Assembly (NCBI GenBank): GCA_016840035.1
Contig: JAEOTC010000160.1
Coordinates: 1-21,882, forward strand
Origin: Candidatus Hodarchaeota archaeon
GTDB lineage: Archaea > Asgardarchaeota > Heimdallarchaeia > Hodarchaeales > Hodarchaeaceae
DNA length: 21,882 nt
Reading direction: 5' to 3'
Shown here: positions 4,336 to 11,465 of the stretch, in pieces
Position numbering within the stretch: the stretch's first letter is position 1
Layout: the number at the start of each line of letters is the position of its first letter
Made by a program: the position numbers and the translations under genes
Notes under the pieces: generated by a model
Seen by the model: the letters and a program-made list of their open reading frames with translations, nothing else
Database searches by the model: none
Told to the model about the DNA's origin: nothing

Positions 4336-5175
4336 ATGGTACTCGCAACACATAAACAAGAGCGAATTTATGGAAAAAGAGCATGGTGGAACCAATTTTG
4401 GTCTATGACGAAGAAGGAATTTACCGTATTAACTCGTTACAAATTTTCATTTATTCTCAGCTTTGTACAGGTTATGGTGATTATGTTTGTTTTTACTGTA
4501 GCGGCTATGGTACTCACTCCTCCTGACCAAGAAAGCTACGGAGCTGGAATCATGTTTTATTCTTTCATTCTCTTCATGTTTCTTTCTACCGCACTCTGGG
4601 ATATCGGGAACTCACTTCGGGAGGAACAATACCAAGGAACACTAGAGTCCTTATTCATGTCTCCTATTAGTTATTTTTCAACACTGATCTCAAGAATCCT
4701 TTCAAATGTTATCTGGACGAGTTTAAATGTAGCAATCGCGTTCCTCTTTATGTCTCTAGTCTTTGGTCAATTGCCTGTGGAAAATTTAATTTTAGGAATC
4801 GTTGTTCTTATTCTTAGTCTATTTGTTTGTTTTGGATTCTCCTTTGGATTTGCGGGGTTAGCATTACAATACAAAGAGTCAATGAATACTTTAACAAACT
4901 TCTTACAATTTTTCTTTATGATAGTTTGTGCAATGTTTTTCCCGTTTTCTGCTCTACCAGATATCGTCCTGATCGTATCAAGACTTATTCCACTTTCTTA
5001 TTGTGTTGACCTCTTCCGTTCTACGATGATCGGTTCCACACCTGAACTTCTATCATTTGAGCTAGAATTTACCATTGTAGCATTATTTTCGATTATCTTA
5101 CCATTTCTAGGAATTTTATTTTTCCGACGTACTGTTACAAATGCTAGAAGACGAGGGACACTAGCAGAGTACTAA
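4336..5175 (+). CDS. ABC-2 type permease (second subunit)
   Basis: EQYQGTLESLFMSP, FFPFSALP and PLSY..DLFR motifs; AGGAGG RBS directly upstream; paralogous to the preceding permease. Confidence 0.92.
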   Translation: MVLATHKQERIYGKRAWWNQFWSMTKKEFTVLTRYKFSFILSFVQVMVIMFVFTVAAMVLTPPDQESYGAGIMFYSFILFMFLSTALWDIGNSLREEQYQGTLESLFMSPISYFSTLISRILSNVIWTSLNVAIAFLFMSLVFGQLPVENLILGIVVLILSLFVCFGFSFGFAGLALQYKESMNTLTNFLQFFFMIVCAMFFPFSALPDIVLIVSRLIPLSYCVDLFRSTMIGSTPELLSFELEFTIVALFSIILPFLGILFFRRTVTNARRRGTLAEY

Positions 5176-5199
5176 AGAATTATGCTTCAGATAAGTCCC

Positions 5200-5243
5200 A
5201 AAAAAAACTGAAAACTCCACAATATTGATTTTTTGAAATCAAT
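5200..5243. terminator. Probable terminator between convergent genes
   Basis: ATTGATTT-tttg-AAATCAAT inverted repeat (5224-5243) abutting the stop of the 55-aa ORF, plus an 8-nt A run at 5200-5207 (T-tract on the minus strand). Confidence 0.45.
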
Positions 5244-5411
5244 CTATGATAGCAATAAGACGATGTAGTTATTTAACCATGGACAACCAATTGGGTTGAA
5301 TTCTTGACCGACTCCACATCGTTCTAAATGATCACAAATCAGGCATGGACAATCCCATGGTTTAGAAAGTTCCGGATAATTCTCCTGAGTCAGTAATTCT
5401 TCCATTGACAT
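5244..5411 (-). CDS. 55-aa protein resembling the C-terminal 4Fe-4S domain of TFE-beta / RNA polymerase III subunit RPC34(C39); not in the ORF track
   Basis: Manual translation: MSMEELLTQENYPELSKPWDCPCLICDHLERCGVGQEFNPIGCPWLNNYIVLLLS*. Contains PC-x2-C-x5-C-x7-P-x2-C-x2-L. An in-frame TAA two codons upstream means there is no N-terminal winged helix. Confidence 0.72.
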   Translation of the reverse strand: MSMEELLTQENYPELSKPWDCPCLICDHLERCGVGQEFNPIGCPWLNNYIVLLLS

Positions 5412-5616
5412 TGTTTATTCTATCCATTCATCGAAATATCGCTGTAGGAGATAATGAAAAACAGGGAGAGATTCGTATGTATACAAAAATGTCTCTGTTT
5501 GGAGTGATCTACAAATATTTGGTATATATTCGGGTTTTTTATTTTTTTAGTAGCTAATTTACCGCTATTTTACTATCGTCTAGAATATAAAATTCATTCA
5601 TTCTCGAAATTAGCTT

Positions 5617-7230
5617 TCAATCACAATTAGAGGAATTAAAAATCTCACTCCTGACTGATTTTCGGAGTAAAGTATCTTTTATTGTTTTTCGTTTCTTCGG
5701 ATAATCAATTGTATAATGAACTCCTCTACTCTCTTTGCGATGAAATCCCGCATCAATAACCATCTGTGCCACATCAGCTAGATTTCGGAGTTCAATGAGA
5801 TCTGAGGTGATATGAAAATCCCAGTAATACTGATTAATCTCATCTTGAAGAAGATGAATCCGTTGTTGAGCACGACGAAAACGCTTATCAGATCTAACGA
5901 CTCCAACATAATTCCACATTAATAGTCGAAGTTCCATCCAATTCTGGGAAACTACCACAGATTCATCACTATCTACTGCATCTCCAGAGTGCCAAGGAGA
6001 AAATGAACATGCTGGAGGGGCTTTGTCTAGTAGATTTCGACATTCTTGGGCTGCAAAATGAGCCATTACACTAGATTCAAGTAATGAATTGGATGCGAGA
6101 CGATTAGCTCCATGAAAACCAGTACAGGCTGTTTCTCCGATCGCAAGTAATCCTGGAATGTCTGTAGAACCAGAAACAGACGCTTTTACTCCTCCAATAG
6201 CATAATGAGCTGCTGGGACAACAGGAATTAGTTCTTTAGTAATATCAATTCCTAATCCTAAACATTTTGCATGAATTCCTGGAAATCGATTTTTGATGAA
6301 ATCCGAATCTTTGAATGAAATATCCAAAAACAAGCAATCATTCCCCGAACGTTTTAATTCAGCATCCATCGCTCTCGCCACAATATCTCTAGGCGCTAGT
6401 TCTAGCCGAGAATCATAAGCAGCCATAAAACGATTTCCAGATGCATCGATTAACTTAGCACCTTCTCCTCTCAATGCTTCAGAAATTAGAAATGACTTTG
6501 CATGTGGGTGATATAGCAAGGTAGGATGAAATTGGATGAACTCCATATTCATTACTGTAGCACCTGCACGATATGCCATTGCAATTCCATCCCCGCTTGA
6601 AATGTCAGGGTTGCTGGTATAAAGGAATGCCTTTCCTAATCCCCCCGTAGCAAGAACAGTGACTCTCGCGGCAAAATTCTTTACAATATCTTTTTGTTTG
6701 TCTAACACATATGCCCCTAAGCATCTACCTGCTCGAATTTTAAGATTGATTGCAATATGATTTTCCAATACTGTTATACGAGGATCTTCTAAAACACGAT
6801 TAATTAGAGTTTCTTGTATATTTACTCCTGTGATATCTTTTGAATGAACAACACGACGATATGAATGTCCAGCTTCCAAACCTAAGTCATAATGATCAGA
6901 ACCTCGTTTTGAAAACTGAACTCCCCATTCAACTAACTCTTTAATACGTTCAGGACCTGCAAATACTATTTTTCGTACGACATCAGGATGACATAAACCA
7001 TCTCCCACATTTATTGTATCCTGAATGTGTTTGTCGAATGAATCTTCAGAAGACAATACAGCACTAATTCCACCTTGTGCAAGAATTGTCGCGCATTCCT
7101 TGAGGTTCGTTTTTGTCAAGACAATAACTTTACCAACATTGGCAACCTTTAATGCCAATGATAACCCAGCAATTCCCGAACCAATGATTAATACATCACA
7201 AGTTGTGTCTAATGAATCTATTGCGTTCAA
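5617..7230 (-). CDS. nadB: L-aspartate oxidase
   Basis: FAD-binding GSGIAG, AQGGI, LEAGHS.RR, MEFIQFHPT, LISEALRGEG, ELAPRDIVAR, GFHGANRLASNSLLE, ESRGVHY. Confidence 0.95.
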   Translation of the reverse strand: MNAIDSLDTTCDVLIIGSGIAGLSLALKVANVGKVIVLTKTNLKECATILAQGGISAVLSSEDSFDKHIQDTINVGDGLCHPDVVRKIVFAGPERIKELVEWGVQFSKRGSDHYDLGLEAGHSYRRVVHSKDITGVNIQETLINRVLEDPRITVLENHIAINLKIRAGRCLGAYVLDKQKDIVKNFAARVTVLATGGLGKAFLYTSNPDISSGDGIAMAYRAGATVMNMEFIQFHPTLLYHPHAKSFLISEALRGEGAKLIDASGNRFMAAYDSRLELAPRDIVARAMDAELKRSGNDCLFLDISFKDSDFIKNRFPGIHAKCLGLGIDITKELIPVVPAAHYAIGGVKASVSGSTDIPGLLAIGETACTGFHGANRLASNSLLESSVMAHFAAQECRNLLDKAPPACSFSPWHSGDAVDSDESVVVSQNWMELRLLMWNYVGVVRSDKRFRRAQQRIHLLQDEINQYYWDFHITSDLIELRNLADVAQMVIDAGFHRKESRGVHYTIDYPKKRKTIKDTLLRKSVRSEIFNSSNCD

Positions 7231-7376: not shown

Positions 7377-8033
7377 TCAACTTAAACGATAAGTACATTG
7401 CCCTCTATCCTCACAATTCTTACAGCGAGTTTCCCATTTAGACTTCTTGATATTTGTCCCCAGATTTATGGCAAAAGATACTGATTTAATCGGTTGCATC
7501 ATATATCCATCTGATAAAGTAACTCCGATGTCATCAGCAGGCAAATGTGAGAAAAAAATTCTTTGGTCGTTAACACTCCACTGACAATAACCAGGGCTAT
7601 ATCGAGAAGAGAATGAGAGATCTTGTTTTTCTGCAATTTTTGTGATCTCTAGATTGACAAGATCTGCGACCTTTTCTACACCAGCTGATCCAATAGCATC
7701 GAAAATAACACCATCAACATATTTTCCTTCACTCATCAATCTATTTACTTCAGATGGAAGTTTAACTCCGATTGTAACAATTGCTAAAGCAACTTGTTGA
7801 GTTTCTGCAAAACATTCACGTTTAGGGAGATCATTTACACTGAATAACTGAAAAATACCCTTTGGTGACATAAAATCATTAGCAATATGAAGTAATTGAT
7901 CGATCTGCGATTCGAGATCCTTCGGTATTTCTTTCGCTCTTAATTTCTTTGTAAAATTTCCATTTGGTTGAAGATAAGAAATTACATCCTCTTTTTTAAC
8001 CGAAATCTTCTCATAAGTGCGTCTTTGAACCAA
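7377..8033 (-). CDS. Stand-alone B12-dependent methionine synthase activation (SAM-binding reactivation) domain protein
   Basis: VTIG...E, D.IGSA.VE, RYSPGY, IGVTLS..YMM.P.KSVS motifs and a C-terminal CxxCx5C.YR tail. Confidence 0.88.
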   Translation of the reverse strand: MVQRRTYEKISVKKEDVISYLQPNGNFTKKLRAKEIPKDLESQIDQLLHIANDFMSPKGIFQLFSVNDLPKRECFAETQQVALAIVTIGVKLPSEVNRLMSEGKYVDGVIFDAIGSAGVEKVADLVNLEITKIAEKQDLSFSSRYSPGYCQWSVNDQRIFFSHLPADDIGVTLSDGYMMQPIKSVSFAINLGTNIKKSKWETRCKNCEDRGQCTYRLS

Positions 8034-8049
8034 ATTGGAAACCGAATTT

Positions 8050-9489
8050 CTATTTTTTTCCTGATGATAAATATTCTGAAGAGAGCTTGTCTAATTCTTT
8101 TGATCTACTAGCATCTAACTCGACTTGTGGAGGTTTTGCTAAGAGATTATTGATTTCTAGCCTTGCTCTTTTCCGAGAAGATAGTGATCCTGTACTCTTC
8201 CACTGATCACGGGTCATTCTAGCAAGAATTGGACTTGGAAAAAAGAGTTCTTTACGGAACAATTGAAGAGTAGAGGGATGTGATAATAATTCGTTCGTTT
8301 GATCATAATCTTTCAAAATGTCTTCTGCAAACGGAGAACCATAGTCATGTATTCCTTCTACAAATCGTTTTACCATACCTGCAATCTCATTATCGATAAG
8401 AAGTTTTTCAATTGATTGACAAGATTCGAAATCAAGCATTCCGGGGCCTGAAATCATATTTATTCCAGTTAATCCTGCTAATAATGCACCCATCCCAGCT
8501 TCTAAGCCAGCTTGAGCATCAGGAATTTTGGAATCACTCAAACTCATATAAGCATGAGTGGGTAGATTCAAAAATTTGCCCATTTCAGCATCCCCAATGT
8601 CAATCATCATCGTCTCGATTGCCCCCATAGGGGTTGTACCATGTTTCATGTCCATCACTGCGGGAGAACCTCCCCAGATAATTGGTGCACCTTTTTTTAC
8701 TAATTGGGAGATTACAACTCCAGCTAAAGATTCCGCACAATGTTGAGTAATAGATCCTATTAAAGTAATGGGGGCATTTGCTCCTGACATGGGCATACTG
8801 ATAAATTCAGAAGGTATCATTCTTTCCGCAGCATCAATAACCGATTGGGTTGTTAAATCCGACCATGAAAGTGGAGGAGAGGGGCAGGCATCAAAGATAG
8901 CTAATGGTTTCTCGGCTAAATCCTTTTCAGAAGTTCGACATGTTAGCAATAGCTCATTCATTATAGAAAAACTTTCTTTCCTGAATGTTCCTGTCACGAT
9001 TGGCTTTCGACTATACTTAAGTGTAGTGTACAATCGATGCCAGTCCTGAGCATCTTTTGGTACATCAGAATACACTAAAGATGTGCTCTGGGCTTCAATG
9101 TTTGCTAATTGGTCAACTATCTGAGTAAATCGAATAAAATCTTGGTGGAGAGGTTCCCTAATTTCACCTGTCTTTTCATCCAGAATGAAAATCGCTGCTG
9201 ATCCAGGATCAAAGTGAATCTTATCTTCCTTAAGGAATAGATTGGGATTCCCTTCACGATCATACATTGTGATTTCATGAGGGGGATAAGTGAGACATTT
9301 TTTCACTAAGTCAGAGGGAATGAAATAGCGTTGATTTTGATTTGGTACTCCCACTTCCTTAAGAAGAGTCTCAGCATTTTTATTTTCTATTAAAACCCCT
9401 AAAGATTCAAGGATATGAGTTGCTTCTTCAAAAATTTTCTTTTTATATTCCTCATTGAGTAATGTAACCTTTGGTCTTAGAATTCCCAT
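8050..9489 (-). CDS. Trimethylamine methyltransferase (MttB) superfamily protein, non-pyrrolysine type
   Basis: SPPLSW, MPMSGANAPITL.G, AE.LAG...Q....GAP, MDMK.G, G..E, SDSK.PDAQAG.E, GPGML and EKLLIDNE motifs. Uninterrupted 479-aa frame, with Leu (TTG, 8539-8541) at the position aligning with Pyl. Confidence 0.92.
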   Translation of the reverse strand: MGILRPKVTLLNEEYKKKIFEEATHILESLGVLIENKNAETLLKEVGVPNQNQRYFIPSDLVKKCLTYPPHEITMYDREGNPNLFLKEDKIHFDPGSAAIFILDEKTGEIREPLHQDFIRFTQIVDQLANIEAQSTSLVYSDVPKDAQDWHRLYTTLKYSRKPIVTGTFRKESFSIMNELLLTCRTSEKDLAEKPLAIFDACPSPPLSWSDLTTQSVIDAAERMIPSEFISMPMSGANAPITLIGSITQHCAESLAGVVISQLVKKGAPIIWGGSPAVMDMKHGTTPMGAIETMMIDIGDAEMGKFLNLPTHAYMSLSDSKIPDAQAGLEAGMGALLAGLTGINMISGPGMLDFESCQSIEKLLIDNEIAGMVKRFVEGIHDYGSPFAEDILKDYDQTNELLSHPSTLQLFRKELFFPSPILARMTRDQWKSTGSLSSRKRARLEINNLLAKPPQVELDASRSKELDKLSSEYLSSGKK

Positions 9490-9500
9490 TTAACTACATC

Positions 9501-10385
9501 CTAACGACTATCAATTAACGTTCTAATTTTTCGTATGTGAGTAGGTGTTGTGCCACAACAACCACCGACAATTTTTACTCCAAGATCGATCATCTGACCG
9601 ATATCATTTACATAATCCTCAACAGGTTGATCATAAAGAGTATTTCCTCCAGAAAGACGAGGTTGACCTGCATTCGGTTTTGCTGAAATCGGGATATCTG
9701 TCAGATTTACTAGCTCTTTTATGAGTTCAATCATCTGATCAGAACCCAATGTACAATTTGTTCCAATAACATCCACTTTTTCCTCCTCCAGCTTAGTAAC
9801 GCACGTTTCCACCGAATCTCCCATTATGGTGAAAAAACCTCGCGTTTTGGTTTTCCGATAGGTCATGGATGCGATAATTGGCTTTTCAGACACTTCTTTA
9901 ATTCCCTGAATAGCGGCAGACATTTCTTGAAGGTCAGATATCGTTTCAATATGCCATAAGTCAATACCTGGAGCTAAAATTTTAGCTTGTTTTTGAAAAC
10001 CCGCTTTCCACATGTCTCCCGATGCATTTCCAACAGGAGGTCTAAATTCACCAGAGGGACCAATATCTCCTACAATTAAGTTTTCTTCAGAAGGTAAAAT
10101 GGCTTTTATATTATTAATAGCTTCAACATTAATCTTTTGATATAGATTGCTAATATTATGCCTATTTAAACTTACAACATTTGAACTAAAGGTACAAGTT
10201 TGGACCATATCTGATCCAGCATCGTAATAACTAGCTAAAACCTTCTTTACAACCTCAGGATTTTCAATATTAAGTAAATCAGGGATTTTTCCTGGTTCCA
10301 AGTCTCTATTCATTAACTGTGTACCCATGGCACCATCAAAAAGAATTATCTTTGATTTATCTTCTAACCAGTTGGTAAAAAGCAT
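9501..10385 (-). CDS. Homocysteine S-methyltransferase domain protein (stand-alone MetH Hcy-binding module)
   Basis: FDGAMGTQL, YYDAGSD, GDIGPSG, IETI.D..E, GTNC, KPNAGQP and VGGCCGTTP.HI, giving all three Zn-binding Cys. No pterin-binding domain follows. Confidence 0.94.
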   Translation of the reverse strand: MLFTNWLEDKSKIILFDGAMGTQLMNRDLEPGKIPDLLNIENPEVVKKVLASYYDAGSDMVQTCTFSSNVVSLNRHNISNLYQKINVEAINNIKAILPSEENLIVGDIGPSGEFRPPVGNASGDMWKAGFQKQAKILAPGIDLWHIETISDLQEMSAAIQGIKEVSEKPIIASMTYRKTKTRGFFTIMGDSVETCVTKLEEEKVDVIGTNCTLGSDQMIELIKELVNLTDIPISAKPNAGQPRLSGGNTLYDQPVEDYVNDIGQMIDLGVKIVGGCCGTTPTHIRKIRTLIDSR

Positions 10386-10408
10386 TAGGGTTTCACATTA
10401 ATCCTTAA

Positions 10409-11056
10409 TTATTGAATCAATTCCTTAACAAGCTTGACTGATTCTACCGCATTTTCTGCATACCCATCAGCCCCACATTCATCAACCCACCCTTGTGTCA
10501 CAGGAGCGCCACCAAAAATTACTTTAAATTTATTCCGAATATTTTTCTGGTTTAAAAGATCAATCACTTTTTTCTGGTTTACCATAGTCGTGGTTAACAA
10601 TGTTGACACTCCTATAATATCTATATCCCCTTTAATAGCTTCATCAACAATTTTTTCAGCCTTTACATCTGTTCCCAAGTCAACAACTTGAAATCCATTT
10701 GCTTTTAGCATTGTAGCCACGATCGTTTTCCCAATAGAATGAATATCACCTTCGATTGTAGCTAGTAGAACTTTACCTGAAGATTGACGTTCTGAACCTG
10801 ATGACTGCAAACCCGGGGTAATTATGTCAACAGCTTTTTCCATAATTTGAGCTCCAGACATCAATTCCGGAAGAAAGAATTCTCCTTCATCCCAAAGATC
10901 TCCTACTTTTCGAATACCTTCACCAAATCCTTTCTCAATCACTTGTAAAAGATCCATACTTTCATCAAGAGCTTGATTCGCTAAATGAACAGCTTTTTCT
11001 TGATCTAAGCTTACAATGGAATTCGCCATTTCTCTATAAATTTCTTCTGTATCCAT
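10409..11056 (-). CDS. Methyltransferase cognate corrinoid protein (MttC/MtbC-like)
   Basis: Cap domain F..G...VG.LW..GEFFLPEL, B12 motif GDIHSIGK.IV, S.LLTTTM, and GGAPVTQ.W....GADGYAENA. Confidence 0.95.
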   Translation of the reverse strand: MDTEEIYREMANSIVSLDQEKAVHLANQALDESMDLLQVIEKGFGEGIRKVGDLWDEGEFFLPELMSGAQIMEKAVDIITPGLQSSGSERQSSGKVLLATIEGDIHSIGKTIVATMLKANGFQVVDLGTDVKAEKIVDEAIKGDIDIIGVSTLLTTTMVNQKKVIDLLNQKNIRNKFKVIFGGAPVTQGWVDECGADGYAENAVESVKLVKELIQ

Positions 11057-11099
11057 GGTGAGACATTCTCCTTTTCAGCAATTAAGATCAGATGTTGTA

Positions 11100-11465
11100 T
11101 TAATATCTATAGTTTTCCCAGTTAAAATCAATTTCATGAAGAAAAGATTGGAATTCTAACGCACGACCTTCTGGATCCTTTGCAAAAAAATTGTAGATAT
11201 TGTATTTCGTATTCTTCACTGGTTTAGTGGTAGCCAATTCACATAAACTTTGATAGACCTGGTCAACTTCTTTAGTAGTCTGATAAAAGAATGTTAATAG
11301 TCCATCCATACTGATTTCATCTCTTTCACAAAATCCAAATAGAAAATTATCATGTTTGAATATTATGCAATCCCCTTGATCTATCCAAATTTTAGAATTA
11401 AGATTAGAATAAAAATTTTTCATTTTTCCAAGATTTTTTGTCTTTAAGAATAAAATACCAGCCAT
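11100..11465 (-). CDS. VOC (glyoxalase/bleomycin resistance-like) family protein
   Basis: Two beta-alpha-beta-beta-beta-like repeats, 'NL..M..FY', C-terminal FF.KDPEGR.LEF. Strong AGGAGGT RBS upstream (11474-11480). Confidence 0.82.
   Translation of the reverse strand: MAGILFLKTKNLGKMKNFYSNLNSKIWIDQGDCIIFKHDNFLFGFCERDEISMDGLLTFFYQTTKEVDQVYQSLCELATTKPVKNTKYNIYNFFAKDPEGRALEFQSFLHEIDFNWENYRY

Follow-up and report, generated by a model that had tools for sequence, protein, structure and literature searches.

A 55-residue four-cysteine microprotein as the probable winged-helix-less TFE-beta of Hodarchaeales

Both TFIIE-beta and the RNA polymerase III subunit RPC34/RPC39 have their archaeal root in TFE-beta, a factor that, according to reviews, is present in Asgard archaea (PMC7289017). 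The contig analyzed here (a stretch of 21,882 nt, referred to below as the window) originates from the Asgard order Hodarchaeales and contains, within an intergenic gap, an open reading frame (ORF) of only 55 codons with the cysteine spacing that typifies the C-terminal domain of this factor. The locus thus raises the question of whether such a small ORF is a gene at all and, if so, whether it encodes an accessory relative of the initiation factor or the factor itself.

The ORF occupies positions 5244-5411 of the minus strand, with an ATG start codon and a TAG stop codon at 5246-5244; the original prediction gave the same position and length, without the strand, and the peptide that it quoted is encoded here. 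The gap that accommodates the ORF, about 440 nt in that prediction, spans 441 nt from the stop codon of an ABC-2 permease gene (plus strand, 5175) to that of nadB (minus strand, 5617). Three parts can be distinguished in the predicted protein, all encoded on the minus strand: a conserved N-terminal lead, MSMEELLT.ENYPELS.PW, delineated from the alignment of homologues (residues 1-21; 5349-5411), a P-C-x2-C-x5-C-x10-C-P-W core found in the same alignment (residues 22-45; 5277-5348), and a C-terminal helix taken from the AF2 model, which assigns a helical state to residues 44-54 (residues 44-55; 5247-5282). The cysteines C23, C26, C32 and C43 follow the C-x2-C-x5-C-x10-C spacing; P22 directly precedes C23, P40 is located three residues ahead of C43, and P44-W45-L46 come directly after it. 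The spacing, both prolines and L46 had all been correctly read in the original prediction, and the same cysteine spacing is found in Saccharolobus solfataricus (Sso) TFE-beta and in human RPC6.

Upstream of the ORF lies an A/T-rich spacer of 205 nt (5412-5616, minus strand), which presumably carries the ORF's own promoter, followed by nadB (L-aspartate oxidase; 5617-7230, minus strand), a same-strand neighbour that provides context only. Farther in this direction, window positions 7377-11465 (minus strand) encode a MetH activation-like domain, an MttB-family methyltransferase, a homocysteine S-methyltransferase and a B12-binding protein. An in-frame stop is located two codons 5' of the ATG, as originally noted (the frame reads WIE-stop-TMSM), and a search of the spacer for a winged-helix (WH) remnant found none, with stops interrupting the frame. 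An assembly error or a decayed upstream WH had been named as circumstances that would undermine the prediction. A second sample of this study (X3) yielded contigs that are identical to the window over positions 5106-5645, and another study (X5) contributes two 151-nt pieces that are identical as well, with no indels seen; an assembly artefact or a frameshift is therefore unlikely. Contigs of two runs (X1, X3) carry an A>G difference at window position 5071, within the ABC-2 permease gene, which is either a strain variant or a consensus difference.

About 100 nt immediately 5' of the ORF (window 5412-5520, minus strand) are conserved among the closest relatives and constitute an open frame in some of them; the start codon of a 90-aa version annotated by NCBI (P0002) is an ATG farther upstream that lacks conservation. 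In the window, and likewise in two other species, stops interrupt the frame of this extension, so that a conserved 5' leader or a promoter is a more plausible interpretation of the region than coding sequence. On the 3' side (5200-5243, minus strand), the ORF is followed by an 8-bp hairpin consisting of A/T pairs only (5243-5224) and a run of eight T residues (5207-5200) that was read directly in the sequence. Both elements had been pointed out in the original prediction and both are present, but the hairpin is not exceptional (z = -1.13; 29 of 200 shuffled sequences fold equally well) and was not called by the terminator scan because it contains no G-C pairs. The T run is in keeping with oligo-T termination in archaea, and the hairpin together with the tract is a likely terminator of this type.

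A word-indexed protein search retrieved at least 19 close homologues of the ORF product (53-90 aa, 71-93% identity, E-values from 1e-18 to 1e-29), most of which are labelled as a 'hypothetical protein' of a Hodarchaeales MAG. Their alignment contains 20 invariant columns, including P22, C23, C26, C32, C43, P44 and W45; C21, the additional cysteine ahead of the core, is variable. Among 12 orthologues from the genus, dN ranges from 0.04 to 0.19 and dS is at or beyond saturation, with a median dN/dS of about 0.06 for the computable pairs. The original prediction had proposed homologues, conservation of the cysteines and dN/dS as checks, and all three are favourable: given the 19 homologues, the four invariant cysteines and the median dN/dS of 0.06, the resemblance is far beyond chance, and the ORF is a real gene under purifying selection. 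The notion that this gene is hidden and missed by annotation is correct in part, in that it has been called by NCBI/PGAP in the public annotation, but without a name. In 10 of the 12 loci from the genus, nadB is located directly upstream; the arrangement is not shared by the sister family or by one locus of the genus itself and thus looks like inherited gene order.

The affinity of this protein becomes apparent only at the level of profiles. A comparison of the window ORF with Pfam and NCBIfam yielded no family match, the only hit being a chance match to ATX_III (E = 0.058), and a search of PDB with the profile of the close family did not reach RPC6; the PDB entries that this search did return, the LIM domain of testin (E = 0.066) and PhnJ (E = 0.7, through a 'WDEPCAIC' stretch), are not significant and were rejected as relatives. 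An exhaustive phmmer search identified distant small relatives of 56-93 aa that share the pattern P-C-x2-C-x5-C-G-x-G-Q...P-x2-C...N-x-W, and the named ones carry labels of Asgard MAGs, mostly Hodarchaeales or Hodarchaeota. The same search also matched actinobacterial-type proteins of 300-900 aa with 4-15 'YPG..PW.C.C..C' repeats, over query residues ~8-30 only, which we judged to be a resemblance to a zinc-ribbon-repeat motif rather than homology. For several of the distant short relatives, the best family is PF05158 (RNA_pol_Rpc34), matched over the last ~45 positions with E-values from 7e-5 to 9e-3. These scores of 16-23 bits cover profile positions ~276-332 only and all fall below the gathering threshold of 28.4 bits; the PF05158 model spans WH domains that the short form does not contain, and the window ORF itself has no match to it.

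A PF05158 scan of the relatives' genomes uncovered 146-aa proteins in another family of Heimdallarchaeia that end in the same cysteine motif, and the set of such long forms (alignment A3) comprises 18 Heimdallarchaeia proteins of 131-185 aa in which a WH precedes the four-cysteine domain. The short family aligns to the C-terminus of the long forms with an hhalign probability of 96.6% (E = 5.9e-10), the LS..W part of its lead coinciding with the linker that precedes the Fe-S domain in the long forms. The best PDB match of the long-form profile is human RPC6 (POLR3F; E = 0.0026, residues 279-315). With a joint profile of 40 short forms and long-form C-terminal domains, RPC6 is again the best match (E = 1.5e-4), through a gapless alignment of 32 residues to residues 284-315 in which the four cysteines fall on C287, C290, C296 and C307 of RPC6 (positions counted in the alignment). 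The P-C-x2-C-x5-C-x10-C-P-W core is invariant in all 40 sequences. The original assignment is thus borne out: on transitive profile evidence, the domain is a four-cysteine domain of the TFE-beta/RPC34 (RPC39, RPC6) type.

Structural models are compatible with this chain of similarities. The AF2 model of a long form shows a winged helix with the H-S-H-H-S-S order of elements at pLDDT of ~90, followed by the cysteine domain, and its top four Foldseek matches are RPC6 chains (E-values from 2.7e-3 to 8e-3), ahead of TFIIE and other WH proteins. The model of the 55-aa protein (pLDDT 78.6), a tiny metal-dependent domain modelled without its cluster, gave no match with either Foldseek or VIA-align.

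The phyletic distribution of the two forms suggests how they are related. A TFE-beta-like match, nearly always a single one, was detected in 75 of the 83 genomes of the class and in 239 of the 251 Asgard genomes of the phylum. Within the order of the window (families f1 and f2), matching frames are 56-107 aa long and match the short-form profile as a whole; in the other families of the class, the match is the C-terminus of a frame of 131-202 aa, and elsewhere in the phylum almost all frames (110-225 aa) hold a WH and an Fe-S domain, the usual architecture (108-153 aa) also in the 30 phylum matches that were read individually. The genome from which the window comes (87% complete) contains a single match to the short-family profile, and the PF05158 scan of this genome found nothing besides; four genomes of the genus (71-94% complete) show no match at all. 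Neither in this genome nor in 24 genomes of the order was a full-length TFE-beta found. In the same 24 genomes, the long-form profile matches through positions ~96-130 only, within the short ORFs, and its N-terminal half has no match better than E = 0.1 that would indicate a separate WH gene. The absence of the N-terminal winged helix, as originally predicted, extends to these 24 genomes of the order. One long-form match (G015) that runs upstream through two stops was considered as a possible WH relic and discarded, since the matched sequence belongs to the C-terminus of nadB, which shares the frame. Because there is one gene per genome, short in the window's order and long in other families, the simplest reading of these comparisons is that the short form, apparently the sole TFE-beta-like gene of the order, is an orthologue that lost its WH.

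Several other architectures came to light in the course of this survey. In families f14 and f27, Asgard TFE-beta proteins of 205-224 aa contain, ahead of the WH and the Fe-S domain, an additional N-terminal zinc-ribbon-like C-P-Y-C-G...H-K-C motif (L071:1453-2124, minus strand; L072:1117-1731, plus strand; L067:257-895, plus strand). In G031, the single genome of family f6, a 156-aa TFE-beta with a WH and an Fe-S domain (L037:2800-3267, plus strand) is followed ~180 nt downstream by a WH-less copy of 87 aa with the same cysteine motif (L037:3446-3706, plus strand), a tandem that may be a duplication intermediate toward the short form; a tree built from the 42 columns of the domain does not resolve the deep forks, the branching of the short forms or their relation to this tandem copy. 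A 128-aa TFE-beta-like protein from G105 (family f22; L048:860-1243, plus strand) has no recognizable WH and consists of a lysine-rich low-complexity lead, a central Fe-S domain and a C-terminal extension. Finally, the TFE-beta frames of G087 and G138 (L045:929-1153, plus strand; L046:989-1204, minus strand) are cut inside the WH, the tail of which can still be read; the probable cause is a frameshift or an assembly error, and these frames are unlikely to be short forms by design.

Detailed biochemical evidence on this domain is available for Sulfolobus. The cluster ligands of Sso TFE-beta, C92, C95, C101 and C112, are spaced exactly as the cysteines of the ORF product (Blombach et al. 2015, PMC4495717), and both Sulfolobus TFE-beta and hRPC39 contain a cubane 4Fe-4S cluster (PMC4495717); by this likeness of sequence, C23, C26, C32 and C43 are predicted to bind a 4Fe-4S cluster as well. 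The Fe-S domain and its cysteines are essential for dimerization with TFE-alpha (PMC4495717), in agreement with the original prediction, which had taken this domain to be the TFE-alpha-binding part, and the TFE-alpha side of the dimer interface requires its WH and C-terminal tail (PMC4495717). With its WH removed (delta 1-73), an engineered Sso TFE-beta can still form the dimer with TFE-alpha, bind to the clamp of RNAP and support the formation of the open complex, from which the authors concluded that the WH of TFE-alpha and the Fe-S core of TFE-beta can trigger DNA melting, with the beta WH adding PIC stability (PMC4495717).

The partner required for such a dimer is encoded in the same genome as the ORF, on the minus strand of contig C100 (L041:1270-1884); it is a TFE-alpha of 204 aa (PF02002) in which a WH is combined with a degenerate zinc ribbon and a C-terminal helix. 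TFE-alpha is a single-copy gene in all 12 genomes of the genus that were checked, and its length shows no gross change between the lineages with the short and the long form. When the ORF product was co-folded with the TFE-alpha of its own genome, the pair scored 0.83, compared to 0.00 for the best of three controls, a result that comes from a model only and pertains to a pair for which a like complex has already been solved. The mark applied here is reached by 58 of 80 solved complexes and by 2 of 110 mismatched pairs, counts that hold only roughly in this case because the alignments were custom-made. At least 92% of the contacts are shared between runs, and the partner has a pLDDT of no less than 83. 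The modelled interface involves residues 5-14, 112-126 and 168-183 of TFE-alpha, that is, the edge of the WH, the next helix and the C-terminal tail; on the microprotein, it lies within residues 13-54 and includes residues 13-21 of the lead as well as residues 46, 50 and 53-54 of the C-terminal helix. The regions of TFE-alpha that appear in this model match those found to be necessary by the published biochemistry. Given that the RPC3-RPC6 pair of human Pol III, which we take to be the like complex, has been solved, the score may reflect this likeness rather than binding by the ORF product itself. With this reservation, we infer that the ORF product forms a heterodimer with TFE-alpha.

An Fe-S domain that binds TFE-alpha could nonetheless be employed in more than one way. 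The original prediction viewed the protein as a paralogue that, without a WH, competes with full-length TFE-beta for TFE-alpha, or as a redox- or iron-sensitive switch that titrates TFE-alpha. The sufficiency of the Fe-S domain for TFE-alpha binding and the oxidation sensitivity of the Sulfolobus TFE-beta cluster (PMC4495717, PMC7289017) are compatible with such a function, and the G031 tandem shows, in another family, that a long form and a short copy can coexist, but a decoy would need a competitor, and no full-length TFE-beta was found in the genome analyzed here or in the 24 genomes of the order, whereas one gene with a WH and an Fe-S domain takes the place of the short form in every other Asgard family sampled. 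The short form therefore appears to be the sole TFE-beta of the lineage and not a competing paralogue, and any redox sensitivity of a gene present once per genome would modulate that sole TFE-beta, so we do not regard the paralogue claim as supported and consider a decoy or titrating regulator quite unlikely.

It is highly improbable that the gene has been split, with the winged helix of TFE-beta encoded elsewhere and the two products reassembling. WH domains diverge fast, too fast for a safe negative, and a separate WH partner gene could therefore have escaped the profile search, all the more in a genome that is 87% complete; against this stand the failure of the N-terminal half of the long-form profile in the 24 genomes and the immediate surroundings of the ORF, where nothing WH-like is adjacent and the upstream side is taken up by nadB and a spacer with in-frame stops. 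The recurrent proximity of nadB, together with the strong conservation of the 20 N-terminal residues, which are specific to the short form, might instead point to a microprotein derived from TFE-beta and recruited to another job, for example, as an Fe-S or Zn protein associated with NAD synthesis, or to another partner. Such recruitment would leave these genomes with TFE-alpha yet without any TFE-beta, the linkage to nadB does not persist in the sister family or throughout the genus, and the difference in the co-folding model between TFE-alpha and the controls also speaks against it, so we see little likelihood in this alternative.

The reading that we prefer, with a rough probability of 0.78, is that the ORF encodes the TFE-beta of Hodarchaeales, a homologue of eukaryotic RPC34/RPC39/RPC6 reduced to the C-terminal four-cysteine domain and ~20 linker residues. 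By analogy with the Sulfolobus factor, its product would function in transcription initiation. C23, C26, C32 and C43 would coordinate a cubane 4Fe-4S cluster around which the domain folds, and the folded domain would dock on the TFE-alpha winged helix, the helix after it and the C-terminal tail; this minimal TFE-alpha/beta core would then sit on the RNAP clamp and promote open-complex formation, while the contribution of the beta winged helix, additional stabilization of the PIC on DNA, would have been given up in this order. A bolder version of this scenario, which we put forward tentatively and consider rather doubtful, is that Hodarchaeales run all initiation with TFE-alpha and a 55-residue Fe-S microprotein, that the cluster is the whole point, coupling the global efficiency of initiation to the status of iron or oxygen, and that the WH was lost after the split from the eukaryotic stem. 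Hodarchaeales is the Asgard order often placed nearest to eukaryotes, and if the loss of the WH indeed followed that split, crown Hodarchaeales would be a poor guide to what the ancestral TFIIE/Pol III subcomplex looked like.

The TFE-beta family and its domain are known; for the WH-less natural form, a literature search found no paper that describes it. If the assignment is correct, an entire Asgard order has kept only the Fe-S, TFE-alpha-binding module, a natural version of the delta-WH mutant that would isolate the Fe-S domain as the indispensable part of the factor and allow the in vivo need for the beta winged helix to be tested. The initiation factor of Hodarchaeales would then be derived and reduced, which matters when the order is used to reconstruct the transcription machinery of the archaeon from which eukaryotes arose, and the unnamed public gene calls of the short form could be named.

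Among the characterized systems, the closest is TFE-beta of Saccharolobus solfataricus (Sso0944), which has the C-x2-C-x5-C-x10-C domain and the single copy per genome in common with the ORF but is ~125-160 aa long with an N-terminal winged helix, compared to 55 aa, no WH and a conserved 20-residue lead of its own in the ORF product. The latter would be the natural counterpart of the engineered Sso delta-WH variant. Human RPC6/RPC39 (POLR3F; e.g., PDB 7a6h chain P) shares the proline before the first cysteine, the P-x2-C element and the W-L motif, but it contains three WH domains and is a stable subunit of Pol III, unlike the ORF product, which has no WH and belongs to a single-RNAP system. 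The TFE-beta proteins of Heimdallarchaeia and other Asgard archaea possess a homologous Fe-S domain and are encoded by one gene per genome, as is the ORF, and differ from it in having kept the WH. Lineage-specific reduction has also affected TFE-beta of Haloferax volcanii, which still pairs with TFE-alpha and continues to do so when its WH is deleted, that is, the WH is dispensable for dimerization (PMC5861453). Haloferax TFE-beta is thus a mirror image of the Hodarchaeales form: in the former, the WH is kept and the cysteines and the cluster are lost, whereas in the latter, the cysteines are kept and the WH is lost.
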